DNA of 64,000 nt, taken from IMG/VR virus record IMGVR_UViG_3300037067_026376, positions 17,698 through 81,697 of that record. One strand, given 5' to 3'. Position numbers and translations under genes: made by a program. The notes under the pieces were generated by a model. The model was not told the DNA's origin. It saw only the letters and a program-made list of their open reading frames with translations, and did not search any database. Origin of the DNA: a virus (Duplodnaviria > Caudoviricetes). Positions 8,624 to 38,012 of this stretch are shown in pieces; the first letter of the stretch is position 1, and every line of letters begins with the position of its first letter.

Positions 8624-10036
8624 TTAAATTTCTATCTCCTCGATTCTTTTAATAAGGGTATTTTTATCCTGCTCCAATGCCGCTATTATTTCGAATATGT
8701 TCTCGGAAAATCCGGCAATAGTCATTATTTTATTACCTATTATCTGAGATGTCCCATATCCCTGCAAATCGAAGGAATAAATATAAGGATCACAATTATA
8801 AGACTTTTTATATTGATTAAATTCTGATTGTGGAGTATTGCCACCCATCCATCCCTGCATATCGCTCAATATTATGATTCTGTCATAAGCCTTACTTGCT
8901 TTCTGAAATATAGAATGAAAATTAGTTCCGCCGCTTGCGAATCTGACTGAATTTGCTAAAGTGATAAGAGTATCGTCAGTGTTTACAGTTCTATATCTTG
9001 CATCGTTATTAAAAGTCATGAAATCACAGTTGTTAGTCTTTACAAGCGCCATAGCAAATAATGATCCTATCTGTGCAGGTTTGCCAGTCATCGAACCGGA
9101 TTCATCAAGAACAACAAGAGTTTTTCCCTTAAATCTCGGGACATTGCTTAATGAAATCTCAACTGCTTTATTCAGATATTTCTTAATCTTAGCGTTGTTG
9201 ACTTCTTCGTAAGCCGTAGTAAATCGGAACGGGAGAACCATGGATTTATAAATTCTTTTTTCGTTTACAAGTTCCTCACATGCTTTATCGATAGCTTCAG
9301 GAGCATTTTCCTGAATATTACGCAGATTACGGATAAGGGCAAAATATTCCAGTTTGGGGTTATTTACGAATTCAATCCATGCCTCTTTCTTCAGCATAAA
9401 TTTTTCTTCCTCGTTCTTCGCCTTCTGACCCGCACCTGTGAGTTTGGATTCCCATGTTGTAGTTGATTTTAATTCATCTCTTACAAGTTTAGCCAACGCA
9501 TCCGAGTTCTTTTCCGATCCCTTCGGATGAAGAAGATTTACAGCATCTATAAGTTTGAACTCTTTTCCTTCTCCTCTGTATTTCGCGATCTGATAGGCAT
9601 CAAATTTATCAAATGCTTTCTTCAGACCCTTTCTTAATGAGTTTGGAATAGGCTTTTTATAGTTACTCAGATAGTATGAAAGTATCTCTGTAATATCATC
9701 GGTGCGATATACTACTTTATCGAAAAAATTCTTTGTCCAGTTCTCGCCCTTTACCTGTTTCGCGATCTCTCCAGCAACGATATGAGTGATAGATCTCATC
9801 CGAAACTCGTTGCGAGCAAATATTGCTGATTTCGCCACAAACTTTTTATCCTTCATCCCGGAAATCATTCTCTTGATTTCTTCAATGTTTGTTTCCTCTG
9901 ATCTGTAGAATTGATCATTTACAAATGAAGTAAGGAGAAACGTCACGAACTCCATTTTATCCGGGAGCTTGTATGCGCGTCCACCCGCCAGGTTTTCCGT
10001 TTTAGCGCTTTGTGTTTTTGTATTAAATTTAGACAT
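8624..10036 (-). CDS. rsr: Ro60/TROVE-domain RNA-binding protein (Rsr) with vWA domain
   Basis: TENLAGGRAY, FARNEFRMRS, DAYQIAKYR, LIDAVNLLHP, TWES, ALIRNLRN, PFRFTTAY; vWA DESGSM, GGTNF, LSDMQ. Confidence 0.93.
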   Translation of the reverse strand: MSKFNTKTQSAKTENLAGGRAYKLPDKMEFVTFLLTSFVNDQFYRSEETNIEEIKRMISGMKDKKFVAKSAIFARNEFRMRSITHIVAGEIAKQVKGENWTKNFFDKVVYRTDDITEILSYYLSNYKKPIPNSLRKGLKKAFDKFDAYQIAKYRGEGKEFKLIDAVNLLHPKGSEKNSDALAKLVRDELKSTTTWESKLTGAGQKAKNEEEKFMLKKEAWIEFVNNPKLEYFALIRNLRNIQENAPEAIDKACEELVNEKRIYKSMVLPFRFTTAYEEVNNAKIKKYLNKAVEISLSNVPRFKGKTLVVLDESGSMTGKPAQIGSLFAMALVKTNNCDFMTFNNDARYRTVNTDDTLITLANSVRFASGGTNFHSIFQKASKAYDRIIILSDMQGWMGGNTPQSEFNQYKKSYNCDPYIYSFDLQGYGTSQIIGNKIMTIAGFSENIFEIIAALEQDKNTLIKRIEEIEI

Positions 10037-10737: not shown

Positions 10738-13700
10738 CTAAAATGGAATTTGCCCTAAGTTTTTTATTTTTTCACAAAAATTTTTTATTCCTTCTTTGAA
10801 AAGTTCTTTATTCTCAGAAGCATAAATAGTGCTCACTGGGTGGAGGCAAAAACATACCCAACACCCGTATTTTTCATTCCATTCCGTAGTTCCGGATTTG
10901 TTAATAATACCGGTATCATTATCTGTGAAAAACTTAATATTCGCGTTTCCCAGAGCTAATACGACAAATGGATTTATACTCCTGAGTTCTTCATCAAGCC
11001 ATTTCCTGCATCTATCAACGTGTTTTCGCGTAGGATTCTTTATTGTCCTACCGGGGTAACATTTGCATACATTTGTAATTTGAAAATCTTCTCTTAAATG
11101 ACCATATAATCCAAGTTCATACCATAAAATATCTCCGGAATCATGGATGAATCCTCTTCCTTGTTTATCCTCGAATTTTCCTGGGGATTCTCCTATGATC
11201 ATTATGTTATAATTTCCTATGGTTGGCAATACAGGTGCTTTGCATTCTTTTCTTAACTCGCAATCCTGACATTCAAGAATGTCTTTATTCCGGAATCTTT
11301 TGACAGGTTTCATCAAATTAAGAGGTAGATTTGATATATTACCCGATATAAGATCATTTTCTCTGTTTGTTACTAAATCAATAAATTCCGTATCTGTTAC
11401 CACGTCAGATAACAGATTATAAAGTTTCGCGTATCTTCCCATGACCCCTTTCATTATAGAGATACTGAGGTATTCCGAGATATGTTCCGCCTCTTCATCA
11501 CGTACTGGGACATCATCATAAGCCTTTATTTCATCAAGTATCTTCATAAATTTATCCGGTATCTTTCTCTTACTCTTCCCGGATTCATAAAATCCCTGGC
11601 CCTCTTTTATATTTTGAAAGGCTATCGCAGTTTTTTCTCCGATCCCTTTTATCTCGGTGAATGGGGCATATAATATTCCATTCCGGATTATCCATAACGT
11701 GGGATCGCTTATTCCTATTTTCGGCGGTCTTATCTCTATCCCTAATCGGAAAGCCTCCGCTATATATTCATTCTTTTTATCTTCATCTTCGGTACCGCAG
11801 GTAAGCAAGGCGCAGATAAATTCTGCGGGATAATTTAATTTGCTCCACATGCAATAATATGTAATCATAGAGTAGGGCACAGCGTGCCCCTTCGTAAATG
11901 CGTAGCCTCCCATAGCTGCCAACTCATTCCATAACATAGACGCCTGTGTCTCCGAAAGTGTGCCTTTTCCTAAGCATCCCTGAACGAATTCACCCTGATA
12001 TTTAAGAAATGCTTCTTCACCTTTTGATTTAGCCACTACTTTTCTTATCTTATTCGCTGTGGCCCAACTCATGCCAGCAAGCTCAATTACCATTTGCATT
12101 AATTGCTCCTGATAAAGAATGATCCCATAGGTATCTCTTGTTATCCCTTCAACTAAGGGATGAATATAATGTACAGGTTCAGTCCCCCTCTTCCTGTTGA
12201 CGAAATCATTACTTAAACCGGATTTTAATGCACCCGGCCTATAAAGAGAGGTTGCGTGTACTAGCATTTCAAAATTATCTATTCCCAAATCCTGACAGAA
12301 TTCTCTTTGACCCTGAGTTCCGACCTGAAAGCAACCTACATTATTTCCTTTTGATAATTCTTCAAAACATTTTGGATTTCTCAAATCTAAATCTTCAAAT
12401 TTGATGTCGATACCATGATTTTCTTTTATAAGTTTTTTCGTAAAATTTAATACTGATAACGTACTTAGGCCAAGTATATCAAGTTTCATCAATCCCATAT
12501 ACTCAATATCTTCTTTATCCCAATTTATTATTGGTTCTTTATCCTTGCCCAATGCGAAGGAGCATCTGGTACCATTTCTGAGATCTTCATCACTAATAAC
12601 AACGGCTGCGGCGTGCTGGCCGCGATTTTTAGATACTCCTTCAGTTGCAATGGAAATATCACAGATTTCTGGAAACTTTTTATGAAATTCTCTTCCTTCA
12701 TCAAATTCATTAATTGCGGAGCTAATTGTAGCGCCATAGCCTTCTTCTCCTTTTAATTTATCTTCTATCACTTTACAAAATATATTCACTTCCTTGAGAG
12801 GAATATCGAAAACCCGGCTTACATCCCTAACCGCGCTTTTTCCTTTCATTTCTGAAAATGTACTCACCGCGGCCACGTTCCATTTCCCATATAATTCTTC
12901 GAGATGTTTACGGATTAAAGGCTTCTTTACATCTTCAAAATCTATATCGATATCCGGATAATCAAATCTTTCCAGAGAAAGAAAGCGCTCAAATAAAAGA
13001 TTATATTCTAAGGGGTCAGGAAGGGTTATCCCTAACAAATAACATACAAGAGAGCCAGAACTTGAGCCACGGCCCGGACCGGTCATGACATCGTTTTCTT
13101 TGCACCATTGAATGAGTTCCCATACGATAAGAAAATATTTCGCGAATCCTTTTTCTTTTATGAGGTCTAACTCATGCCACATCCTTTCCCTGTATAATTC
13201 TTCGTTCTTTCCGGTAATAATTATTTTATCTGAAAACCCTTCAAAGCATAACTTGTTGAGTATTTTTTCATCAGTTTCCCATATAAATTTAGGAACAGTA
13301 GGGAGAGATATTGTTTTCTTTTCTATCTTTTGAAAGCCGGAGCATTTCTCCGCAATTTCCATTGTATTTCTAAGCGCTTCCTGATATATACCGTCAGGTA
13401 TAACAGCCTGCTCTTTAAATCCTCTTATCATTTCACGATAACTCTTTAAGTAATAACTATCTCCGGTAAATTTCCATCTCTTTTTATCCGACCATTTGGA
13501 TTTAGTCTGTATCGCGAGCAACACCTCATGAGCTTTCGCGTCCTCGGGATAAACGTAATGCGCGTCGTTGCTGCATACAAGAGGAACACCCGTTTTGTGA
13601 CATAAATAATCACATAATTGATTTGTTTCTTTTTGTTTATCGAAATCATGAGGCATTATTTCCAGATATAATAAACCCGGGATTCGTTGTTTTAATTCTT

Positions 13701-27159: not shown

Positions 27160-27410
27160 TATTTTGTCCTTAATTCATTTATTGAAGGTGCATATAATTT
27201 TGATTCCCACATCAAATTAAAACCATACATAGATTCTATCTGGTAATGCCACCATCGTTTATGTTTTCCGAAATATTTATATATTATTTGCGGAATAGGC
27301 TCGTTAAGTAACAATAAAACTATATGATGTTTATAATGATCCTGATGATTATAAAAACAATCACCTGGTTCTAAATTAAATATATTTTGATCAAAATCTT
27401 TATTATCCAT
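27159..27410 (-). CDS. hypothetical protein
   Basis: 83 aa, coupled on both sides. Confidence 0.55.
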   Translation of the reverse strand: MDNKDFDQNIFNLEPGDCFYNHQDHYKHHIVLLLLNEPIPQIIYKYFGKHKRWWHYQIESMYGFNLMWESKLYAPSINELRTK

Positions 27411-29263
27411 TACTTTTTCCTGTATCTATTCATTAAAATTGTAAGCATATTCTCATCTTCAGGTGCTTCTCCGTCCATGATAGCTGTTATTACCTGCCTC
27501 TTCTTATCTATTATTTCCGCCATATCCTCATCGATAGTATTTTCTCCGAGGAGATAATATATATTCACAGAAGCTGCTTTCTGTCCTATTCTTAAACTTC
27601 TATCTTCTGCCTGATCATGAGACGCCGGGATCCAATCCAATTCAATGAAAGCTACATTACTTGCAGCAGTCAAAGTAATACCCATGCCGGCAGCTTTTAT
27701 GTTTCCTGCAAATAATTTTATATCAGGGTTGTTCTGAAACTCATCTACAGATTTCTGCTTCTGATTCATGTTATCCCTGCCGTCAAGTTTTACCGCAATA
27801 TCAGGATATTTCTTCATAATCATATCTATAGCGGAGTGATGAACACAAAATAGTATAAGTTTTTCTCCAGATTCCAGGAACGTATCTATCCAGGAAAATA
27901 TCTGCTCCCTTTTTCCAGCTACAGTTAATTGTTTTAATTTTTCAAATTTAACGAGAACTTCCGCCATTGTAGCGCGAATAGCTGATTCCTGCCCTTCCGT
28001 TTCATGCAGATAATTTATAATGTCCGCTTCAGCTTTTTCATATTCCTTTCTGTTATTTATTTCCATGGGGATAACACTTCTCTGCTTGAGGGGAAGATCC
28101 TTTAGGACGTCTTTTTTTAATCTGCGTATCATGAATGAATTTACAAGGATTTTATGCAGCTTATCAGTATTGCTATGCCCTTTGAAACCGTCTTCCATAC
28201 TTCCACAATATTCCATTCCGAAATGATACCAGTTAGGGAATAATTTTGGATCAAGCATATTTAAAGTGGTAAAAAATTCTATTGGCCGGTTCATAATTGG
28301 AGTTCCGGAGAGGCATATTATTTTTTCCATTTTTCTTGATATTTTTTTGACCGCTTTCGTTCTCATTGCCTTCGGGTTTTTGATAGCTGAGGATTCATCT
28401 ATGATCATTATCTTAAAATTCATTTCCATTAGTAATTCAAGGTAATCTTTTAATATGTCATAATTTATGATCGTTATCTTTTTATCATCATAGAACACGG
28501 ATTGCCGTCCCTGTATGATTTGAACGTTATCACCTTCTTCCGGCATCCATTTCTTAATTTCCCTATGCCAGTTAAGTTTAAGAGTTGCCGGTACTACTAT
28601 GAGCGCAGGTCTTAATTCGGGATGTAACTTCATATAGACAATTGATTGTGCACTTTTTCCAAGGCCCATATCGTCTGCGAGTAATGCCCTGCCATTGAAT
28701 TTTTCAAGTAGCTGCACTCCTTCCTCTTGGAAGGGATATAACTTCAATCCTGTTTGCAGCGAGACATTGATATCGGCAGGCTTCACTTCTTCTATTTTTC
28801 CACCTTTAATCTCAAACCCTAATTCGCTCAGCTTATCATAACTGTATTTATTCGCAGGCAGGCTCCACTGCTTTTCATCTTTATTCCATACCCTGCCCGG
28901 CAGCCTCCGTATTTCTTCCAGAATTTTTTTAAATTCTTCTGTCGATCCGCCGAAATTAAGATAAATCATATCATTTTTAACTGCTGCGGTTTTATATGAT
29001 GGTCTTACTATCTGCTGATCCGTAGGCGAAGGCACGGGTATTTTGTCGTAAAGTATTTCCATTCCTGAAAGCTGATTTTTGTATTTGCTCAACATTTTAT
29101 GCACAGCATTCGCCATGTTATAAGTCCATGACGGTTTCGCCGCCAGGTCTCGTGCGAATGGAGAATCAAACCTATTAAACCCCTGCTGATCCTGTGATGA
29201 TGCGCCGTCACATACATTATTTAGTGCTGTCAGTGCCTGTCTTAACTCGGTATAGTTTTCCAT
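27410..29263 (-). CDS. SNF2-family helicase (SMARCAL1/HARP-like)
   Basis: LYPFQ.EG, LADDMGLGKS, IIDES, LSGTPI.NRP, RRLKKDVL, DWIP...QAEDR.LRIGQ. Confidence 0.92.
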   Translation of the reverse strand: MENYTELRQALTALNNVCDGASSQDQQGFNRFDSPFARDLAAKPSWTYNMANAVHKMLSKYKNQLSGMEILYDKIPVPSPTDQQIVRPSYKTAAVKNDMIYLNFGGSTEEFKKILEEIRRLPGRVWNKDEKQWSLPANKYSYDKLSELGFEIKGGKIEEVKPADINVSLQTGLKLYPFQEEGVQLLEKFNGRALLADDMGLGKSAQSIVYMKLHPELRPALIVVPATLKLNWHREIKKWMPEEGDNVQIIQGRQSVFYDDKKITIINYDILKDYLELLMEMNFKIMIIDESSAIKNPKAMRTKAVKKISRKMEKIICLSGTPIMNRPIEFFTTLNMLDPKLFPNWYHFGMEYCGSMEDGFKGHSNTDKLHKILVNSFMIRRLKKDVLKDLPLKQRSVIPMEINNRKEYEKAEADIINYLHETEGQESAIRATMAEVLVKFEKLKQLTVAGKREQIFSWIDTFLESGEKLILFCVHHSAIDMIMKKYPDIAVKLDGRDNMNQKQKSVDEFQNNPDIKLFAGNIKAAGMGITLTAASNVAFIELDWIPASHDQAEDRSLRIGQKAASVNIYYLLGENTIDEDMAEIIDKKRQVITAIMDGEAPEDENMLTILMNRYRKK

Positions 29264-29319
29264 AGTTTTAGCCCTTTATATATTATATATCGGAATATTT
29301 ATTGTTTTTATCAAAAGAA

Positions 29320-29342
29320 AACCCCGCTCTCACGGGGTTATT
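29320..29342 (-). terminator. intrinsic terminator for leftward early transcripts
   Basis: AACCCCG-TGAGAG-CGGGGTT followed by TTCTTTT on the minus strand. Confidence 0.6.
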
Positions 29343-29344
29343 AT

Positions 29345-29536
29345 TCATTGTTTTTGCAGATATAAATCAAAGCGTAATTTATTACTGCCCCAGTTTAATG
29401 AAACAAGCCTTAAAGCATCTGACCATTTCGTAGCAAGGGCATTTTTACTGGAGTAAGGAACAATCCCAATTTCAACGATCCAATTCTCGTCTATTCTTAC
29501 ATCGTTAAGTGTTTCTTTCAATTCTTTTACTGTCAT
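29345..29536 (-). CDS. early hypothetical protein
   Basis: 63 aa; preceded by the cassette RBS module. Confidence 0.55.
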   Translation of the reverse strand: MTVKELKETLNDVRIDENWIVEIGIVPYSSKNALATKWSDALRLVSLNWGSNKLRFDLYLQKQ

Positions 29537-29616
29537 AATAATTATCCCTTTATAATTATAGATTTGTAAACCCTCAAGGGTTTATGTAAGTCCCCCGCAG
29601 GAGACAAACATAAAAC

Positions 29617-29808
29617 TTAGAAGTTCATCATAATTGATTTATCTATTTCTTCTTTTGAATATTCCACTTCCGATTCCCAATAATTTTTGATTTTACATTT
29701 GTTATTCTGGTCAAAAATTACTTTTCTAAGTTTAGGACCATCGTTTATCAAATAATTAGATTTTGCAATAGCATAATAAATATTATTTTCTTTAAAAAAA
29801 GTTATCAT
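29617..29808 (-). CDS. early hypothetical protein
   Basis: 63 aa; RBS GGAGG. Confidence 0.5.
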   Translation of the reverse strand: MITFFKENNIYYAIAKSNYLINDGPKLRKVIFDQNNKCKIKNYWESEVEYSKEEIDKSIMMNF

Positions 29809-29820
29809 ATAAATCCTCCG

Positions 29821-30465
29821 TTATGCTGCTTTTAGATTTTCTCGGATCTCCCGAAGTGCTGATGTGATTCTGTATTCGTCCCAGCCTTTGCCATGAAAGT
29901 AATCATAGATTGCGTGCTGTTTCGCTTTCGCCCGGCTCATATTTGAGCGTTCCCGGAAATTACGTTCCATGATGAAATTATAGTTATAAATAATTTCATC
30001 ATGCATCTGCCGTGCGTCCCTGCTCATGCTCTGAAGCGTGATGTCGATAAGAAGATCGCTTTCTTCCTCTTTCCATCCCTTTACCTCTCTCCCGCAGAAC
30101 ATAGCCCCCTGGGGCAGATTAAGGGAATCGCTTCCGTTATCTTCTGAGTTGATAGAATCAGTATATTGATGATACCGTTCCAATTCCTGATTTTCCTGCA
30201 TTCTACCGTAGAACTCCCCGTTCTTTTTCTTGCCGCCGTTTATACTTCCCCGGCGTGCGTAATTATACATTTTCCAGAACAGAGATTTTGAGTAGAAGGT
30301 ATGAAACTTAGCTGCAGAGGGATTGAATTTTTCTGCGCACAGCATAAATGTATCGTGTGCTACTTCTAAAAGCTCATCCCTGTCTATCCCAGTAGTTTGA
30401 TGAATATTTTTTACCGTGATATTAATAGCTTTTTCTACTTCTTTCGTATAGAGTTCTTCATACAT
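29821..30465 (-). CDS. phage RNA polymerase sigma factor-like protein
   Basis: Region-2-like DRDELLEVAHDTFMLCAEKFNPSAAKFHTF..KSLFWKMYNYARR; region 4 is degenerate. Confidence 0.6.
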   Translation of the reverse strand: MYEELYTKEVEKAINITVKNIHQTTGIDRDELLEVAHDTFMLCAEKFNPSAAKFHTFYSKSLFWKMYNYARRGSINGGKKKNGEFYGRMQENQELERYHQYTDSINSEDNGSDSLNLPQGAMFCGREVKGWKEEESDLLIDITLQSMSRDARQMHDEIIYNYNFIMERNFRERSNMSRAKAKQHAIYDYFHGKGWDEYRITSALREIRENLKAA

Positions 30466-30548
30466 AGTATTGACTCTCCCTTTTATAATTTTGTTAAGCG
30501 TTTAAAAAACCTTACTCAATCCCTGCGTACAGGGAAAGAGTAAAACTT

Positions 30549-30923
30549 TTAATTTTTTACGATTTCTCTTATTGCGTTTTCTACCGCATCCCAATTCATA
30601 CCGTATTCATTATCTGTATGTCTTGAGATATGATCCAGAACCTCGCCAGCCTGAATATTGTTTATTTCGACATCCATTTCTTCCGCTTTTTCGTAGACGT
30701 CCGCAGTCTCCCATGTATCTACAATCGCAATCGTAGTTCCATATTTATCGTTTGTTTCAATCAGTTCAGCTTTTACGACATGGAAATCAGCATTCACTAT
30801 TTCTTTTAATTCTTTAACTCTTGTCTCGGCGTCACCTTCATGAAGAAAGAATTCGCCGTGATCATCATGCGATAATTTGTTTCCGTTTCTGCTTTCGCCT
30901 GATTTGATAAGATATACCTGCAT
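30549..30923 (-). CDS. early hypothetical protein
   Basis: Cassette RBS; C-terminal A.EVL...H....G.NWD pattern. Confidence 0.6.
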   Translation of the reverse strand: MQVYLIKSGESRNGNKLSHDDHGEFFLHEGDAETRVKELKEIVNADFHVVKAELIETNDKYGTTIAIVDTWETADVYEKAEEMDVEINNIQAGEVLDHISRHTDNEYGMNWDAVENAIREIVKN

Positions 30924-31003
30924 AGTATTAACCCCTTTATAATTATATTTAAAGTTTTTAAAAACTTTACTCTATAGGTATATATACCTATAGAGTAAAA
31001 TGT

Positions 31004-31201
31004 TTAATTTCTTCCTGCGATTGCTATTCCCTGCGGATTATAAATTAATGCGACATCTTTTAAAGGTATTCCGCCTTTATCGAAAACATTACCTTTATCA
31101 TCCATGACGGATTTGCAGAAATCATTATAATAATATTTGAAATCCTTCGCCGTTCCTTTCCTTTCTAATCCGTCCTCTACGATCCAGTATTTTGCTTTCA
31201 T
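31004..31201 (-). CDS. early hypothetical protein
   Basis: Start MKAKYW placed by the cassette RBS. Confidence 0.55.
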   Translation of the reverse strand: MKAKYWIVEDGLERKGTAKDFKYYYNDFCKSVMDDKGNVFDKGGIPLKDVALIYNPQGIAIAGRN

Positions 31202-31281
31202 AATATTAACCCCTTTATAATTATATTTAAACCTTAAAGGTTTACTCAATGACCCGTTTATACAGGTCAAAGAGTAACGCT

Positions 31282-31719
31282 TTAATATTCCCCGGCTTCG
31301 TCTTCAATTTCTTCTGCGTATTCCCTGAATTTATTTTTGTCCTTGTAAACTATTTCATAGGATAATTCAGGACCGTCTTCAGTGTCTCTTGCATCATAAT
31401 CAGCAATGATACAATTAATTGATTTCTCGCTGTCTGTTGCGACATAAGAGACAAACCCGGATTGTATCCCTATGACAATATTAATTTCGGGTTCGCTGTC
31501 GCTGGCTGGTTTTTCTTCTATTTTTCCGGCAGGATATAGAAATATTTCCGCAGTGCCGACGCTGTTTCCGTTAAAATCATTGAATCTGTCAAATAACGAT
31601 TTTATATCGTCATTCACTGCAATTTTTTTGCTGTACTCTGACAAGATTCTAGAGACTTCCTGACCTGGTTCGTCGCTAAATGCGTCGTTATCCAGATTGA
31701 TTTTAATAACTAGTTCCAT
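31282..31719 (-). CDS. early hypothetical protein
   Basis: IKINLDNDAF...EVSRIL...DFNGNSVG, recalled from phage early proteins. Confidence 0.6.
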   Translation of the reverse strand: MELVIKINLDNDAFSDEPGQEVSRILSEYSKKIAVNDDIKSLFDRFNDFNGNSVGTAEIFLYPAGKIEEKPASDSEPEINIVIGIQSGFVSYVATDSEKSINCIIADYDARDTEDGPELSYEIVYKDKNKFREYAEEIEDEAGEY

Positions 31720-31800
31720 TACATTAACCCTTTATAATTTTATTTAAGTCTTAATAGACTTATACAAAGGGAAAATAATTTTTCCCTAAGCATAAATACA

Positions 31801-32034
31801 TTAAAAATACGATAGATTTTTGATTGCTTTCTTGTCTTGTTCCCTATTCCCGATATGAATATTTTTAATTGCAGCCTGTAAAATTATTCTAGGAAGAATA
31901 AAATCGTCGCTGTAATCCTCTTTATTGATCCCGCCACTGATTAATAAGCGTTCGCCCTCAGACTTCAAAAATGACTTGAAATCACAATTATTGATCAGCT
32001 CTTCATATTTTACTTTAAATTGTTCCTTTGTCAT
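31801..32034 (-). CDS. early hypothetical protein
   Basis: Start MTKEQ placed by the cassette RBS. Confidence 0.55.
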   Translation of the reverse strand: MTKEQFKVKYEELINNCDFKSFLKSEGERLLISGGINKEDYSDDFILPRIILQAAIKNIHIGNREQDKKAIKNLSYF

Positions 32035-32120
32035 ATAATTAAACCCCTTTATAATTATTGTTAAGATTTTAAAAAATCTTATGCAATGACCTGAATATAT
32101 CAGGTCAAAACACAAAACTT

Positions 32121-32432
32121 TTATTTTACATTCGCTATCATGTCACGCTTTAAACCGTCGCTGACATTCCATATAATGGGATAATTATTTTCCCTTTCAT
32201 ACATTCTGTAATTATCTTTATTATATTTTTTCGGTAATAGATTATTCTCAAACATAATCGCCAATGCTGTTTGCTTGTAATGTTCGCCGTATCCGTAAAC
32301 TACAGGATCAGAAACAAATATTTTTCCGTCTTTTATGCGTTCGATATTTACAGAATGATAAGTATTACCATTTACTTTGTCGAACCAGCGCACAGCGGAA
32401 ACATTAAATAATATTACTCTTTGCTTTTTCAT
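32121..32432 (-). CDS. early hypothetical protein
   Basis: RWFDKVNGNTYHS...YGYG..Y.QTA motif. Confidence 0.65.
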   Translation of the reverse strand: MKKQRVILFNVSAVRWFDKVNGNTYHSVNIERIKDGKIFVSDPVVYGYGEHYKQTALAIMFENNLLPKKYNKDNYRMYERENNYPIIWNVSDGLKRDMIANVK

Positions 32433-32521
32433 ATAATAAACCCCTTTATAATTTATTTAAGTCTTTTTAATAGACTTATAAAACAGGGATAATAAAATAT
32501 TATCCCTGAAATATAAATTGA

Positions 32522-33388
32522 TTAATTTTCGCTAATATATTTTTCGGCGAATACCCCAGTTGTTTTGAAATTGATTGCCGGGATAGAAATTGATTTTTCG
32601 TTATGGTCAATGACTACAGAATTTGACGCTATCAGGTTTAAAAATTCCTGATATTTATTTTTTGTTTCCTGTAATTCTGAAACATATTTTTTTATATCGT
32701 CAATTAAGGCGATATAAAATTTGTCGTAATCAAAAAATTTAGTTACGGAAAAATTACCGTCAAACACTGCGTAATATAAGTATTCGCTGTCAATATCCAG
32801 AATATCAGTTAAGATGAATTGAAGAATTGATCCCGATTGGTGATTTAACATTAACGCAGTGTCAATATTCCAATCTGAAGAATCCGGAAAATTATCAAAA
32901 CTTGACCAAAAACCGTCGTAACTTGTGTAATGATCCCTTAAATATTGCGTCCATTCTTCCATATTATCAGAAATCAATTTTTTAATATTATCAATATTTT
33001 CCTTTGTGAATACAATTTCAATATTTACGGAATCGTTGTAAAAATTGTATTCTCTAGGCGAAACAATTTTCTGATAATTCAATTTCTTTATCAGATTATT
33101 TTTCACTAATATTGATTCAATTTCTGAAGCGCATTTTTTGCAAACCGCTGTTTCATATTCCCGATTTTTAAAATGATCATAAGATTTATTGTTTATGAAT
33201 GATTCAATCTTTTTTGATAATTCTTCGCTGTTATTATTCACTAATAATAAATCAATTTCACTGTTTCCAGTTTTTTTATTTTCGATCGATTCTTTTAAAT
33301 CCTGTATGATATAATCATTATCAGGTTCAAAAAGAGTATTGTAAAAACCTGGGAATACCGGTAACCATGATTCAACTTTTTTATTCAT
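32522..33388 (-). CDS. early hypothetical protein
   Basis: LPVFPGFYNT...SPREYNF.NDS...YTSYDGFWS motif. Confidence 0.65.
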   Translation of the reverse strand: MNKKVESWLPVFPGFYNTLFEPDNDYIIQDLKESIENKKTGNSEIDLLLVNNNSEELSKKIESFINNKSYDHFKNREYETAVCKKCASEIESILVKNNLIKKLNYQKIVSPREYNFYNDSVNIEIVFTKENIDNIKKLISDNMEEWTQYLRDHYTSYDGFWSSFDNFPDSSDWNIDTALMLNHQSGSILQFILTDILDIDSEYLYYAVFDGNFSVTKFFDYDKFYIALIDDIKKYVSELQETKNKYQEFLNLIASNSVVIDHNEKSISIPAINFKTTGVFAEKYISEN

Positions 33389-33468
33389 AATATTAACCCT
33401 TTATAATTAAATTTAAGGTTTTAAAAACCTTATCACTAGAGATATATTAATCTCTAATGATAAAAATT

Positions 33469-33612
33469 TTAAAGTGGACGTAAACAGCTTGTCTTGAAAA
33501 ACCAGTTTACGCCGTACCAGTCTTTATTTTTGCCGGTTAATTTTACAATATAAATTGTCCTTAATTCTTTTATTACAATTCCTGTCCCAATTCCTTTAAC
33601 ATATACTTTCAT
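33469..33612 (-). CDS. early small protein (47 aa, not in ORF track)
   Basis: Hand translation MKVYVKGIGTGIVIKELRT...TSCLRPL, lying between two cassette modules. Confidence 0.55.
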   Translation of the reverse strand: MKVYVKGIGTGIVIKELRTIYIVKLTGKNKDWYGVNWFFKTSCLRPL

Positions 33613-33693
33613 ATATTAACCCCTTTATAATTTTATTTAAGTCTTAATAGACTTATGCAAAGGGAAAATTATTTTTCCCTAAGTATAAACATA

Positions 33694-33870
33694 TTAAAAA
33701 TTATGATTTATCATCGGTTTATTATAATGTATATAATTATATATTTGTTGTTGTTCCTGCGGTGTAAAATCAGAAATTTTTATATATTTCTTTTTATTTT
33801 CCGATTCATAAATAAAATTAGTTTTATCGTCATAAAACCAGCGATAATTATTAATTATAATTTTTTCCAT
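33694..33870 (-). CDS. early small protein (58 aa, not in ORF track)
   Basis: MEKIIINNYRWFYDDK...INHNF, lying between two cassette modules. Confidence 0.55.
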   Translation of the reverse strand: MEKIIINNYRWFYDDKTNFIYESENKKKYIKISDFTPQEQQQIYNYIHYNKPMINHNF

Positions 33871-33958
33871 AGTATTAACCCTTTATAATTTATTTAAGTC
33901 TTTTTAATAGACTTATAAAACAGGGATAATAAAATATTATCCCTGAAATATAAATTGA

Positions 33959-34378
33959 TTAATAACCGTAAAGAATATCGGAAACATTCTTATTATATTT
34001 ATCATCACTATTTTTTAAAGCATAGAATAAATTTACTGTTCCGCCGCGCGGATCATGTTGAAATTCAGGAATGATTGAAATAAATTCGCTGATATTTATT
34101 TTCCCTGCGTACTCTTTTATTTTTCCTTCAATCAATTCTATTTCCCGATCAAATACAGTAAAATCATCTTTAATATATGCGTTTTTATCAGTTATGGAAA
34201 AATGACCTTTGCGGGGAATATACCCCTTACCATTACATGAATTTTCGCATTGCCGCTGATGCTGTTTATAAAGTTTTCTCAATTTCATAAAAAGCATTAC
34301 TTGATCATAATTTAATACAAGTCCTGCACGCTCAGCGAATACCCCGACGATAAAATAATACAGTTTTGTATTTTTCAT
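33959..34378 (-). CDS. early hypothetical protein
   Basis: LRKLYKQHQRQCENSCNG...FQHDPRG motif. Confidence 0.6.
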   Translation of the reverse strand: MKNTKLYYFIVGVFAERAGLVLNYDQVMLFMKLRKLYKQHQRQCENSCNGKGYIPRKGHFSITDKNAYIKDDFTVFDREIELIEGKIKEYAGKINISEFISIIPEFQHDPRGGTVNLFYALKNSDDKYNKNVSDILYGY

Positions 34379-34465
34379 ATAATTTTAACCCTTTATAATT
34401 TATTTAAGATTTTTAAAAATCTTATAAAGACAGGGAATATATAATTCCCTGCTGATATAAAAATT

Positions 34466-34705
34466 TTAATAACTTTCGATCCATTCACTTAATGACATTT
34501 TAAAATTCATTCGATTAAATACTTTTTCAATGTCATTGATATTTTTTGTATTAATTAAATCGGATATTATATCAGATTTATAATTTTTAATTGTTTCTAA
34601 TATTGCATCGTATACATACCCATTTTTTACTAAAATTTCAATTGCTTTTTCCGTATTTGCGTCAAATTCTTTTATTAAAGATTCTTTTATCATTTTATAA
34701 TTCAT
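34466..34705 (-). CDS. early hypothetical protein
   Basis: 79 aa with cassette RBS. Confidence 0.55.
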   Translation of the reverse strand: MNYKMIKESLIKEFDANTEKAIEILVKNGYVYDAILETIKNYKSDIISDLINTKNINDIEKVFNRMNFKMSLSEWIESY

Positions 34706-34792
34706 ATAATTTTACCCCTTTATAATTAGTATTAAGAATTTAAAAAATTCTTATCCATGAGTAATAATATTATTACTCATGGGAAAAACTTT

Positions 34793-35617
34793 TTACTTTA
34801 ATTTGAAATTAAAGCAATCCGTTTGAAATCCGCCGTAAACAGAATCATAATTATAACTGCGCTGAGCGTCGGCTTTTATTCCTATGCGATCATATTTTGC
34901 GTTGCCGTAACAAACAGGAATTGTCATTTTTTTAAACGTCTTATTCTCAAATTGACTGCCTGATCCCAGGAATTCGCCGAAAAAACCGAATTGAGTATTT
35001 TTGGGAATTTCTATTGATTTACAAGTTTTGATTTTTTCCTTTAATTCAAGAAAATCATTTAAAGAAATAGTAAACGGTAATTCCAGTAAACAAGCTCCGT
35101 ATACATTCGCATGTTCAGAAAGATAATCATCTTTTTTTATTCCCTTCCTTACTACTTTGAAAATCTCCGACAAATAACCTTTTTCCGACATAGTATCCAT
35201 TGAATTAGTACAGTCATAATTTGAATAAAATATCAGACTTGCCAATATTTCAGTATTAAGTAATTGATCATAATTCAAATTTACAACCGGATAAATCTCC
35301 AGTTCATTGATAAATTCTTTTATCAGTTTATCGTCAATTTCAGATTCTGAATGATCTGAAAGTAATATTTCAGCAATTTTTGATTTAAAATGATCAAATA
35401 TTATTTCTTCCTTAAAAAAATCTTCCTGCTGAAAGATATAATCTAGATTATTTTCATAAAGTTCATTGCAAAAATTATCGCTTCCCTCTTCTAGAATAGA
35501 AATAATTTGATTTTTTGACAAATTGTCGCTGCGGTCAAAATCAATCTTGACCGGGTTTTTGTCGCAGTATTCCTGAATTTTAACTTGTAAATCAGCAATC
35601 ATTTTTTCTTTTAACAT
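34793..35617 (-). CDS. early hypothetical protein
   Basis: 274 aa with cassette RBS. Confidence 0.65.
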   Translation of the reverse strand: MLKEKMIADLQVKIQEYCDKNPVKIDFDRSDNLSKNQIISILEEGSDNFCNELYENNLDYIFQQEDFFKEEIIFDHFKSKIAEILLSDHSESEIDDKLIKEFINELEIYPVVNLNYDQLLNTEILASLIFYSNYDCTNSMDTMSEKGYLSEIFKVVRKGIKKDDYLSEHANVYGACLLELPFTISLNDFLELKEKIKTCKSIEIPKNTQFGFFGEFLGSGSQFENKTFKKMTIPVCYGNAKYDRIGIKADAQRSYNYDSVYGGFQTDCFNFKLK

Positions 35618-35735
35618 AGTATTAACCCTTTATAATTAATATTTACGATTATTAAAAACCGTATAAAATGGCAGGAAAATTAATCCCTGTCAAAGTATCT
35701 GATTTTTAAATTAAAAGTTGCCGGATTGCTCCGGC

Positions 35736-35912
35736 TTACCAGATTTTATTGAAATTCTTTTTTAAAATTTGTTTTGCATAAATAAATTTTGGCAAAATTG
35801 AATCATCATTATCCCAGACAACATTAGTAAGTCTTGATTCGTACCTATCTAAAAATTTTAAAAGTCTTTCTTCAGTCATATTTTTTATAGTTGTTTTATA
35901 ATTTGTTTTCAT
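35736..35912 (-). CDS. early small protein (58 aa, not in ORF track)
   Basis: MKTNYKTTIKNMTEERLLKFL...; lacks the cassette RBS and is flanked by gccggattgctccgg hairpins. Confidence 0.4.
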   Translation of the reverse strand: MKTNYKTTIKNMTEERLLKFLDRYESRLTNVVWDNDDSILPKFIYAKQILKKNFNKIW

Positions 35913-36014
35913 AATTTGTTTTCCCGGACAATCTAACCCGGCATTTTGAGCCGGGTATTTTTTTATTTGCCGGATTGCTCCGGTTTGGTGTGCTAATATA
36001 CCATGTGGTATTTT

Positions 36015-36176
36015 TTAAATTACTATTAAATATTTATAATCGTATAAAACGGCCATACATAGTTTGTAGCTGTTGTATTCCGGATATAATTCTTTCACTT
36101 TTTCTTTTGCTATTGCCATGCAATCATTCGTTAATATTTCTTTCACTTTGTTGTATTGAGATTTTGTTATTTTCAT
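36015..36176 (-). CDS. early small protein (53 aa, not in ORF track)
   Basis: MKITKSQYNKVKEIL... with cassette RBS. Confidence 0.5.
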   Translation of the reverse strand: MKITKSQYNKVKEILTNDCMAIAKEKVKELYPEYNSYKLCMAVLYDYKYLIVI

Positions 36177-36876
36177 AATATTAACCCCTTTATAATTAAA
36201 TTTAAGTTTATAAAAAACTTATTACAGGACACTTTTAAAATGTCCTGTTTATAAATCTTTTATTTACAGTAATTAAACCAGAATATTTTGTAGTCACTCC
36301 ATAAAAATATATTATCTCTATCTTTATATTTTATCTCTTCAGCGATGTGATATATTTTTATATTATATTCTGATTCTATTCCGTTTTTTTGTTTGCATAT
36401 TTCTTTTTTAAAATCAATCATATAATCACCCTTTATAATTATAGTATAAGATTTAAAAAATCTTATGTAATGACTGTATTTAATACAGTCAAAACATAAA
36501 ACTTTTAAGCGACTCTTTTTTGTCTCAATGCTAAGCGGCGAGAAAATATTTTTCCTGTTTTGTCTTTTTCAAAAATTGTTTTTACATACTGGACATTACC
36601 TTTCAGGTCATAACATTTAACAAATTTTGTTTCATTTACAATTTTCATATTATTTTACCTGTTTTTTTATTTTTGATTTTAAAGCATAGTAAGAAATTAC
36701 TGCCGCTAACAATAACACCGCTTGTGATAATATTTCTAAAGTCTTTTTATCTAACATAATATTAACCCTTTATTAATTAGATTTAAGATAAAAATTAATA
36801 TCTTACTAGATAAGACAATTTGCATTGTCTTAAATAGTAACATATTAAAAACTGCAAATATATTATTTATTCCAGA

Positions 36877-37061
36877 TTCGACGATTTATAAAAAGATATA
36901 AACCGGACAGGATAATATATTTGTCTTTGTGTTAAGTTTAGGGTTAATTATATAGGGTTATTAGATTTAATTATTTTGCTTTTGCCGTATTGATCGGGAT
37001 ATACCCGGATTATACAGTGTTGCAAAGCCTTAATCTTAAAATTAAGTTTTAAATCGTCGAA
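36877..37061 (-). ncRNA. stem-closed leader RNA at the head of the early operon
   Basis: 12-bp closing inverted repeat TTCGACGATTTA/TAAATCGTCGAA, internal hairpins, two AACCCTA motifs. Confidence 0.5.
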
Positions 37062-37092
37062 TTTCAAATAACCAGTTGTACTTTACATATAT

Positions 37093-37122
37093 AATATAGT
37101 AATAATATCGGTTAAAAGTCAA
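37093..37122 (-). promoter_or_regulatory. sigma70-like early promoter
   Basis: TTGACT-18 nt-TATATT, with an upstream T-rich UP-like tract. Confidence 0.6.
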
Positions 37123-37229
37123 GAAAAAAAAGAAAAAAAAGTGAAAAAAGTTTACGTATGTAAACAAAAACAGGCAAAAATTGAACTTTTTTTAATAAAA
37201 AATAGATAAATTCAGGGAAAAATAAAATA

Positions 37230-37700
37230 ATGTCCGATATAAAATAAATATATCTATAAGAGCAATAGACATATAGACATATAGATAATAATAAACAGGA
37301 TATAACAATCAAATAATATAGAGATATAGAGTATCTGTATATAATGTATTATTTATATATTCAAATAATACGATATAATAGAGCTAAACAGGATATTATA
37401 TATTACATTAAATTGATTGATTATACAATACAGGATATATACAATACAGGATATATAAACAACAATATCCGATATAAAAGAAATATAAACAATAAGAGAT
37501 AAACAATAAAGTAATGATAATAAACAGGATATAATATATTTCTTCGAATTGATCGATTATACAATACCCGATATATAGTAAGAGTAAAGGGTAAGAAAAT
37601 AAAGAAAAATATACAGGATACAGGGCAAAAGCAGGGAAAGAAATATATGGCGGCATACTATCTATTTATCTATATATTCAAATAATACGATATATATAAC
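37230..37700. repeat. AT-rich region with dispersed ACAGGATA and (C/A)CGATATA repeats
   Basis: About six ACAGGATA and five CGATATA copies; tandem acaatacaggatatat; duplicated tatattcaaataatacgatata. Confidence 0.75.
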
Positions 37701-38012
37701 CTGATTATATAAGCTTTTTATAAGACTGATAGTGCTATGAGACATAACATATATTAGAGGAAGTAATACTATATGGACATTTTCATATAAATGTCCATAA
37801 AACATAAAACCATGTCCTATAGCCTATTACACGTTGTTCAACCTCGTATAATTTTATGGAAATTTTTTCTGGCCTCCATTTCCTATAATATCCTCTCCCT
37901 TCTATTACGAGACATTACTCCCGTATAATTTTATAGGAATTTTTTCCTACCCCCTTATTTCTATTAAGTATTTCTTTATTATATTCCGATATATATGTTA
38001 TGGAGTAAATGA

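Follow-up and report, generated by a model that had tools for sequence, protein, structure and literature searches.

A repeated double-hairpin module precedes the small genes of a putative early operon in an uncultured phage

Why should most small genes of a phage array be preceded by a leader that keeps its fold while its sequence changes? This question is raised by the minus strand of a 64,000-nucleotide stretch of phage DNA (positions 17,698 to 81,697 of IMG/VR record IMGVR_UViG_3300037067_026376; the whole stretch is referred to here as the window), which is part of an 81.7-kb contig that was 59% complete as judged by CheckV. A preliminary description had reported some 16 leader modules at 29536-36845, each with two overlapping hairpins, B and A, upstream of a start codon. 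The presence of a repeated double-hairpin module was confirmed. A covariance model, trained on 15 copies with a hand-drawn structure, detected 16 copies in the 81.7-kb contig; these lie between 29537 and 36845, without exception on the minus strand, and score 43-86 bits, in agreement with the reported number and extent; the best match elsewhere in the contig or on the opposite strand was below 29 bits. There were 19 small open reading frames (ORFs) of 35-288 amino acids on the minus strand of the array region (29345-36757), 16 of which were headed by a module; the other three were either close-coupled to the preceding ORF or had other leaders.

With up to one mismatch allowed, ATTATAAAGGG occurred 21 times in the window, compared to an expected 4.2 ± 2.1, and 15 of these occurrences were on the minus strand at 29546-36439. 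The motif TTATAAA[AG]GG was found 15 times on the minus strand of the whole 81.7-kb contig, always inside the array. The covariance model was considered to be specific, since in 567 kb of unrelated metagenome loci, picked solely for a short motif, its four matches came from just two contigs, both of them probably related to the present phage. The motif had initially been described as unrecognised, and it corresponded to no Rfam family: the curated covariance models gave only four sub-threshold chance matches, two of them to microRNA models. A blastn comparison of the array with 50,697 phage records gave no match. The promoter-less version with two overlapping hairpins is regarded as new, built on designs of the T7 and T4 types, since no match was found in Rfam or in the published descriptions found.

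Further copies were obtained from related phages. Homologues of the neighbouring helicase, with 99%, 68%, 54%, 53% and 48% identity, were located on contigs L117/L118, L119, L120, L121 and L122/L124, respectively; an initial helicase-based search for loci in IMG/VR returned distant loci only. Short-motif scans of IMG/VR and metagenome contigs gave mostly chance single matches, the only genuine relatives added being G001/L131 (IMG/VR) and L163. The two-hairpin architecture was present in the early gaps of L117 (19 copies), L119, L120, L121 and G001 (13 copies). Six related metagenomic phage contigs contributed 48 further copies, and all 64 copies, from seven contigs, were oriented in the same way as the genes.

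Reading and folding of the copies bore out the proposed anatomy. In 14 of the 15 intercistronic copies the module started 0-2 nt past the upstream stop codon, and in 14 copies the intergenic region or module was 80-89 nt long. Hairpin B consisted of a near-fixed lower stem (UUUAY/RUAAG), a 2x2 internal loop and an upper stem that was rich in G+C, 6-12 bp long and free to vary in sequence; any one of the four loop positions was U in 29-34 of 45 copies. The whole hairpin comprised 11-22 bp (median of 16), with a folding free energy of -8 to -27 kcal/mol. Hairpin A had the form UAAG-NN-U-rich loop-NN-CUUA, and its first three bases were the last three of B. That the two hairpins share one TAA, as had been proposed, was evident in nearly all copies: of 43-44 copies, 42-43 had this UAA paired in the lower B stem, and for hairpin A the count was 39-43 of 44-45. 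Hairpin A was followed by AAAU, an AU-rich run, AAAGGG(G), 8-11 nt and the ATG. In L120, the 54%-identity relative, the conserved tail was AAATTAAGAGGTGATTTAT, which is a canonical Shine-Dalgarno sequence, and AAAGGGG was therefore taken to be a ribosome-binding site and not a promoter element.

The stems had also been described as variable yet complementary, with the structure under selection, and analysis of covariation upheld this view. In a structure-blind MAFFT alignment of 15 copies from the window, 83.5% of cells paired, compared to 61.0% after shuffling, the covariation score was 0.612 (0.221 when shuffled) and 15 of the 18 pairs changed on both sides. With 61 distinct copies from seven contigs, 92.7% of predicted pairs formed (57.7% shuffled) and there were compensatory changes at 16 of the 18 pairs, including all eight upper-stem pairs and all four hairpin-A pairs; the copies are paralogues, some of them near-duplicates, and such cell counts overstate the number of independent events. 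The covariation score of this set was 0.888, compared to 0.208 for shuffled sequences and 0.09-0.16 when the partners were slid by 1-3 columns. G.U combinations filled 33 cells and A.C combinations 10, where base composition predicts a ratio of about 1.5:1 (binomial estimate, p ~0.01); this excess favours folding of the coding strand, that is, of the mRNA. Since the copies are co-oriented with the genes, show the G.U excess, abut the stop codon and end in a ribosome-binding site, the evidence favours an element that acts in sense-strand RNA.

A further helix, which lay outside the structure of the covariance model, competes with hairpin A. Hairpin B is extended when the five bases that immediately follow the stop codon pair with the 5' arm of A. 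This B extension was paired in 71-76% of cells, compared to 60-63% in shuffled sequences, and had a covariation score of 0.35-0.37 (0.18 shuffled); none of 500 shuffles reached this value and slid controls gave 0.02-0.12. The B extension and hairpin A are mutually exclusive and both carried a covariation signal, that of the extension being weak. In silico, hairpin A had a mean probability of 0.34 in intact modules, and the Shine-Dalgarno sequence was paired mostly with the 3' arm of A. When the 5' strand of B was removed or shuffled, the probability of hairpin A rose to 0.66 (Wilcoxon p = 2e-8) and the unpaired probability of the Shine-Dalgarno sequence from 0.43 to 0.71. When modules were folded within their full coding flanks, with the stop codon covered by a ribosome footprint, the latter rose from 0.51 to 0.61 (p = 0.10). 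An insulation test, in which the openness of the ribosome-binding site was compared between native and shuffled hairpins, was null (0.46 vs 0.42).

The ends of the array are marked by transcription signals. A candidate early promoter with a T-rich upstream tract (TTGACT-N18-TATATT, 37122-37093 on the minus strand; 10 of 12 matches in a promoter scan), the function of which we infer, reads into the array, and the array of the distant relative L124 is headed likewise (T-rich tract, TTGAAA-N17-TATATT). At the other end, the terminator scan identified an intrinsic terminator, a GC hairpin and then UUUUCUUUU, at 29320-29339 on the minus strand; its equivalent, a hairpin with a T-run, precedes the helicase gene in L117, L119, L120, L121 and G001. 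We infer that the array is a single early operon extending from the host-type promoter at ~37.1 kb to the intrinsic terminator at 29.33 kb.

Comparison of related phages revealed that the cargo order is not fixed, as the cassettes had been gained and lost and one pair had been swapped. The window and L117 were 97.5% identical over 3.3 kb past the array and their helicases 99% identical, but their arrays differed by at least seven cassette gains, losses or replacements. Collinear cassettes had 73-100% amino-acid identity. Genes for proteins of 79, 103 and 77 amino acids, among others, were confined to the window, and those for proteins of 84, 105, 72, 69, 119 and 61 amino acids to L117. The 103-amino-acid gene had homologues in G001 (74%) and L121 (53%), and none in L117; in G001 its homologue lies upstream of the 47-amino-acid gene, whereas in the window the 47-amino-acid gene comes first. 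Ten of the 13 ends of similarity blocks between the window and L117 fell inside a module or within 15 nt of one (hand count); since surviving indels sit between genes anyway, these breakpoints are consistent with, and do not prove, module-mediated recombination. Reading of the sequences of the relatives indicated that the consensus tail is specific to each genome, which suggests homogenisation within genomes. Homologous exchange between repeats is plausible because the phage encodes SbcC- and SbcD-like proteins. As judged from these sequences, the arrangement is consistent with the ~40 conserved bases, present 16 times, serving as homologous-recombination joints at which cassettes are gained, lost and reordered. 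The gene shuffling at modules that had been suggested thus held in the sense of whole-cassette differences among near-identical relatives, as in the promoter-early stem-loop (PeSL) cassettes of T4-type phages discussed below, and was not supported as regards an integron or attC mechanism.

The 48% relatives L122 and L124 had a different leader, comprising another hairpin and a fixed ribosome-binding site; because these phages use other fixed hairpin leaders, the pairing of a hairpin with a standard ribosome-binding site extends more widely within the phage group. The L124 leader has a GC hairpin and then AAGACTTTAAATTTAAGGAGG, and that of L122 a GC hairpin and then AGTACCAAATAAAATCTTACAGGAGG. 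The motif CTT(T)AAAT persists in these leaders, where hairpin A is lost.

What, then, might the module do? The preferred reading, to which we assign a probability of roughly 0.4, is that it would be a cis-acting site for the processing and stabilisation of one long early mRNA, in which an exchange of hairpins is combined with a standard ribosome-binding site. A host double-strand-specific endonuclease of the RNase III type would cut hairpin B, as at the early sites of T7. The upstream cistron would retain the upper stem of B as a protective 3' hairpin, while the freed 3' strand of B would fold with neighbouring bases into hairpin A, which would become the 5'-terminal hairpin, or cap, of the next cistron. 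The AU-rich tract and the Shine-Dalgarno sequence AAAGGGG would give each cargo gene the same translation start.

The early sites of T7 are cut by RNase III, leaving a protective 3' hairpin. For comparison, the five early intercistronic regions of T7 (R0.3, R0.5, R1, R1.1 and R1.3) were folded from the RefSeq record. Like the hairpins described here, to which they are comparable in size, these sites have a lower and an upper stem separated by an internal loop, with shared flanks around variable upper stems. In both phages host-type promoters and an intrinsic terminator delimit a long early transcript, a hairpin is repeated in the leader and between cistrons (16 junctions here, on what would be a single transcript) and the operon holds a transcription-switch gene, which encodes an RNA polymerase in T7 and a sigma factor here. 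With its 11-22 bp and central 2x2 loop hairpin B resembles the two-turn hairpins of the T7 type, many copies being at the short end. The two systems also differ: the internal loop is asymmetric in T7 and a symmetric 2x2 U/U loop here, each site here is followed by an additional hairpin (A), which overlaps it, and by a fixed ribosome-binding site of 24 nt, neither of which T7 has, and there are 16 copies here, where cleavage is predicted only, compared to five in T7. Side-by-side reading, without alignment, disclosed no shared motif, the flanks being CUCAAGG..CCUUUAUGAUU in T7 and UUUAU..AUAAG here. Panganiban and Whiteley are said to have described in 1983 Bs-RNase III sites in the early mRNA of the Bacillus phage SP82; that phage, likened by citation alone (PMC4838370), shares with the present one repeated hairpin sites in early polycistronic RNA and a host with strong Shine-Dalgarno sequences.

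Several points weigh against processing as the role of the module. With just 13-16 bp, many B hairpins would be short substrates for RNase III. In ~9 of 15 copies a run of U adjoins the 3' side of the whole of hairpin B, which might thus act in weak termination or attenuation rather than as a cleavage site. The predicted stability of hairpin A is low, as its mean probability of 0.34 indicates, and the modelled opening of the Shine-Dalgarno sequence was not significant (p = 0.10) once the real flanks and the ribosome footprint were included. The paralogy of the copies and the intergenic position of surviving indels, both noted above, belong here as well.

An unlikely alternative, and the best of the rivals, is a translational-coupling switch that operates without cleavage. 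A ribosome terminating on the upstream cistron would melt the lower stem of B and its extension, hairpin A would close and the downstream ribosome-binding site would be freed, such that a cistron would be translated only on mRNAs whose upstream cistron is translated. Such coupling would account for the position of the stop codon, which lies 0-2 nt from the 5' strand of B in 14 of 15 copies, for the covariation of two mutually exclusive helices and for the release of both hairpin A and the Shine-Dalgarno sequence, mostly paired with the 3' arm of A in the intact module, when the 5' strand of B is removed. However, with real flanks and a ribosome footprint the gain in Shine-Dalgarno accessibility was small, the predicted OFF state is leaky, the insulation test was null and module 1 lies in the leader with no evident upstream gene. 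The initial suggestion of RNase III processing or a translational switch was thus left with both of its parts alive and not mutually exclusive, the first through the T7-like geometry and the second through the two covarying, exclusive helices.

More generally, and with the same doubtful standing, the array may carry 16 copies of a bistable RNA switch, in which the long form of B holds the 5' arm of A, the CUUA arm of A masks the Shine-Dalgarno sequence and a trigger flips the RNA to the A form. Candidates for this trigger are a ribosome that terminates, an endonuclease of host or phage origin that reads the invariant UU/UU loop and the AUAAG junction, and an early protein of the phage. A switch of this kind, if real, would provide one common handle by which early cassettes might be timed, coupled or shut off after transcription, and a standard connector would make a newly captured gene expressible immediately.

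It is quite improbable that the module is a true PeSL-type cassette boundary, in which hairpin B and its U-run act as a terminator or attenuator, each module contains a promoter not recognised by the scan and each gene is a unit of its own. The PeSLs are promoter-early stem-loop cassettes of T4-type phages (PMC2839356, PMC4122927). They share with the present modules the order of parts (stem-loop, Shine-Dalgarno sequence, ATG), a location among the small ORFans of a hyperplastic early region, duplicated modules that flank cassettes, and a role in gene turnover, with insertions, deletions and replacements between close relatives falling at the modules (PMC2839356, PMC4122927). In addition, most copies have 4-7 U within 8 nt after hairpin B, and about five of the 16 module hairpins passed a simple terminator scan. 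On the other hand, the sigma-70 promoter that defines a PeSL was absent from the modules both by scan and by alignment. No hexamer pair with a 16-18 spacer recurred in the aligned modules; the best candidate register (TTGnnn of the UU-loop ... TTAAAT) combined a 13-17 spacer with a poor -10 element that lacked the conserved A2 (hand count), and use of TATAAA would make transcription begin within the Shine-Dalgarno sequence. No enrichment was seen in the promoter scan (73 sites vs 57.8 ± 8.6). A sigma-70 promoter inside the modules was rejected on these two grounds, the lack of a recurrent hexamer pair and the unenriched scan. The A-U-rich, loop-interrupted base of B would make a poor terminator; a plain terminator was ruled out for most copies when the upper stem alone was considered, and attenuation was retained within this rival. 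A PeSL-type origin also leaves the covariation of hairpin A and the conserved internal loop unexplained. Furthermore, a PeSL has one stem-loop with a G/C tract, whereas the present module has a pair of overlapping hairpins and an internal loop, and the phage is unrelated to T4, having a polymerase of the PolIII-alpha type and a different replication module.

A recombination device, consisting of single-stranded DNA hairpins that serve as an attC-like recombinase substrate or of a self-propagating repeat that spreads with the cassettes, is very unlikely. As in integrons, promoterless ORFs lie in an array of one orientation, each with an imperfect palindrome that is conserved in structure and variable in sequence, and the cassettes turn over among relatives. 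Unlike integrons, the array lacks an integrase, R''/R' core sites and an attI/Pc platform, and the evidence points to RNA and not to the bottom DNA strand, given the excess of G.U over A.C on the coding strand and the exact registration with the stop codon and ribosome-binding site. No integrase had been seen in the window; likewise, no tyrosine recombinase (PF00589) was present in the 81.7-kb contig (59% complete) or in the 27.6-kb related contig G001, and no tyrosine or serine recombinase adjoined any array or was found in the 81.7-kb contig. The same contig yielded no RNase III and no single-subunit RNA polymerase. The sole tyrosine recombinase found in the clade was G002:C34 (294 amino acids; L151, 6083-6967; PF00589 and PF02899) of a 53% relative. 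It lies 27 kb from the array of that phage, between SbcD-like and split SbcC-like genes, and the syntenic gap of the present phage (G000:C1, ~12359-13406, outside the window) has no recombinase gene; G002:C34 may be a mobile insertion in a nuclease operon. The attC core (RYYYAAC ... GTTRRRY) was not seen on reading of the copies, for which no formal scan was made, the conserved positions being UUUAU, AUAAG and CUUAAAU. The proposal of integron attC-like sites for single-stranded DNA recombination was thus not supported, and membership of that class was rejected on the lack of an array-linked recombinase, the lack of core sites and the coding-strand G.U excess.

It is extremely unlikely that hairpin A is a DNA-hairpin promoter for a virion-carried, N4-like RNA polymerase, with B as the preceding terminator: the 7-9-bp stem, small loop and conserved flanks of A, its position ~25-30 nt before each ATG and the GGG downstream of it would fit, but there was no single-subunit RNA polymerase (best PF00940 score of 11.8 bits, under the cut-off) and no ORF of more than 1138 amino acids in the window, the relatives carry contractile-tail genes and a conserved promoter of the host type stands before the array. 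A promoter for a phage RNA polymerase was accordingly rejected, the best PF00940 score being only 11.8 bits. A palindromic protein operator at hairpin A was also rejected, as the arms vary and covary and the arm and loop lengths differ.

The start-associated sequences (SAS) of Cluster K mycobacteriophages are conserved and asymmetric, include a ribosome-binding site and lie immediately before the starts of 11-19 non-structural genes that share an orientation; an inverted repeat, its spacer variable in length or sequence, stands upstream of roughly half of them, and their proposed role is translational (PMC3203893). The SAS and its extended form (ESAS) resemble the present module in layout only. 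The 13-bp SAS sequence GGGATAGGAGCCC and the 17-bp inverted-repeat consensus were not found here, where the sequence differs. The ESAS arms keep to that conserved consensus, which suggests a protein site, whereas the arms here vary and covary, which suggests a nucleic-acid structure; and the present module, unlike SAS or ESAS, abuts the upstream stop codon.

The early regions of phages harbour the majority of the uncharacterised genes with which the host is subverted and its defences are counteracted, and how such genes are expressed and exchanged has been detailed in few model phages. The module is a compact, promoter-less connector in an uncultured phage clade that joins an intercistronic site in the style of T7 to a recombination joint in the style of PeSLs, with unusually clean covariation and two competing helices that are both conserved. 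If the hairpins do toggle, they would constitute a simple natural part with which to couple or insulate the genes of an operon, and would show one RNA design serving both expression and gene shuffling. The covariance model is a means to find further arrays, and their cargo, in metagenomes.

In order of transcription, all on the minus strand and with bits referring to the covariance model, module 1 (36757-36845, 43.4 bits; also folded) lies in the leader of the first small gene (36757-36650) and has a variant tail, TTAATAAAGGG. It is followed by two modules that each head a 53-amino-acid gene, module 2 (36420-36504, 67.2 bits; also folded) that at 36421-36260 and module 3 (36177-36259, 60.8 bits) that at 36176-36015. 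The 274-amino-acid gene (35617-34793) is headed by module 4 (35617-35703, 59.8 bits), with a weak lower stem in B and with UACG..CGUA as hairpin A; the C-G at the shared position constitutes a compensatory change within hairpin A. Module 5 (34707-34791, 63.4 bits), before the 79-amino-acid gene at 34705-34466, belongs to a cassette missing from L117, and module 6 (34380-34465, 69.5 bits) heads a gene for 139 amino acids (34378-33959).

Duplicated modules were evident in the middle of the array. Module 7 (33870-33958, 65.8 bits), heading a 58-amino-acid gene (33870-33694), and module 10 (32433-32521, 63.0 bits), heading the 103-amino-acid gene (32432-32121), are duplicates that are identical as far as TATAAAGGG; module 10 begins a two-cassette insertion relative to L117. 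Between them lie module 8 (33612-33693, 77.6 bits), which precedes the 47-amino-acid gene (33612-33469), and module 9 (33388-33468, 61.6 bits), which precedes the 288-amino-acid gene (33388-32522). Module 8 is nearly identical to module 12 (31719-31800, 73.5 bits), found before a 145-amino-acid gene (31719-31282). The highest score was that of module 11 (32036-32120, 86.1 bits), which heads the 77-amino-acid gene (32034-31801) and has an extended hairpin B of 19 bp. Further downstream, module 13 (31202-31282, 81.6 bits) and module 14 (30924-31003, 78.3 bits) precede genes for 65 (31201-31004) and 124 (30923-30549) amino acids. Module 15 (30470-30548, 65.2 bits), with the tail TTATAAAAGGGAG, heads the sigma-like gene g17, and module 16 (29537-29618, 62.2 bits) heads the last gene, of 63 amino acids (29536-29345).

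The gene g17 (29821-30465, minus strand; 214 amino acids), behind the penultimate module, is the only cargo cassette retained in every relative. A profile of seven g17 homologues matched solely sigma factors in the PDB (best E-value of 4.6e-4), four of the seven matched PF04542 (Sigma70_r2; best 2.3e-8) and g17 itself matched phrog_351 (E-value of 2.8e-4). From these profile, Pfam and PHROG matches, g17 is identified as a diverged factor of the sigma-70 family. None of the other array cargo proteins had an informative match in Pfam, PHROG or the ESM Atlas.

A 58-amino-acid gene at 35912-35736 (minus strand) has no double-hairpin module. A GC hairpin, CCGGAGCAATCCGGCAA, is directly repeated on either side of it, at 35718-35734 and 35967-35983 on the same strand, and GC hairpins of a similar kind (CCGAGTCCGGCGGG..ACCGGAC) precede small genes that lack a module in L117, L119 and G001. 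This arrangement looks like a second, unrelated type of cassette boundary.

The genome is organised in two arms that diverge at ~37-38 kb. The plus-strand arm carries the terminase, portal and virion genes. The minus-strand arm starts with the array and continues past it with an SNF2 helicase gene (27410-29263) and genes for a DnaB-like helicase and a PolIII-alpha-type polymerase. An untranslated leader of ~240 nt (36850-37093, minus strand), from the early promoter to module 1, could hold a structured RNA; the equivalent leader of L124 (7589-8184) is ~480 nt long and G+C-rich. The divergent control region (36895-37996, plus strand) contains at least ten short motifs of the form ACAGGATATA or (T/C)CGATATA(T/A)A, and TTCCGATATATAATA is located between the array terminator and the helicase gene (29281-29295, minus strand), where it is conserved in L117, L119 and G001. 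Motifs of the ACAGGATATA and TTCCGATATATAATA types are candidate g17 promoters, or candidate operator or iteron sites. Elsewhere in the window, a 470-amino-acid ORF at 8624-10036 matched phrog_850, which is annotated as 'RNA-binding protein'.

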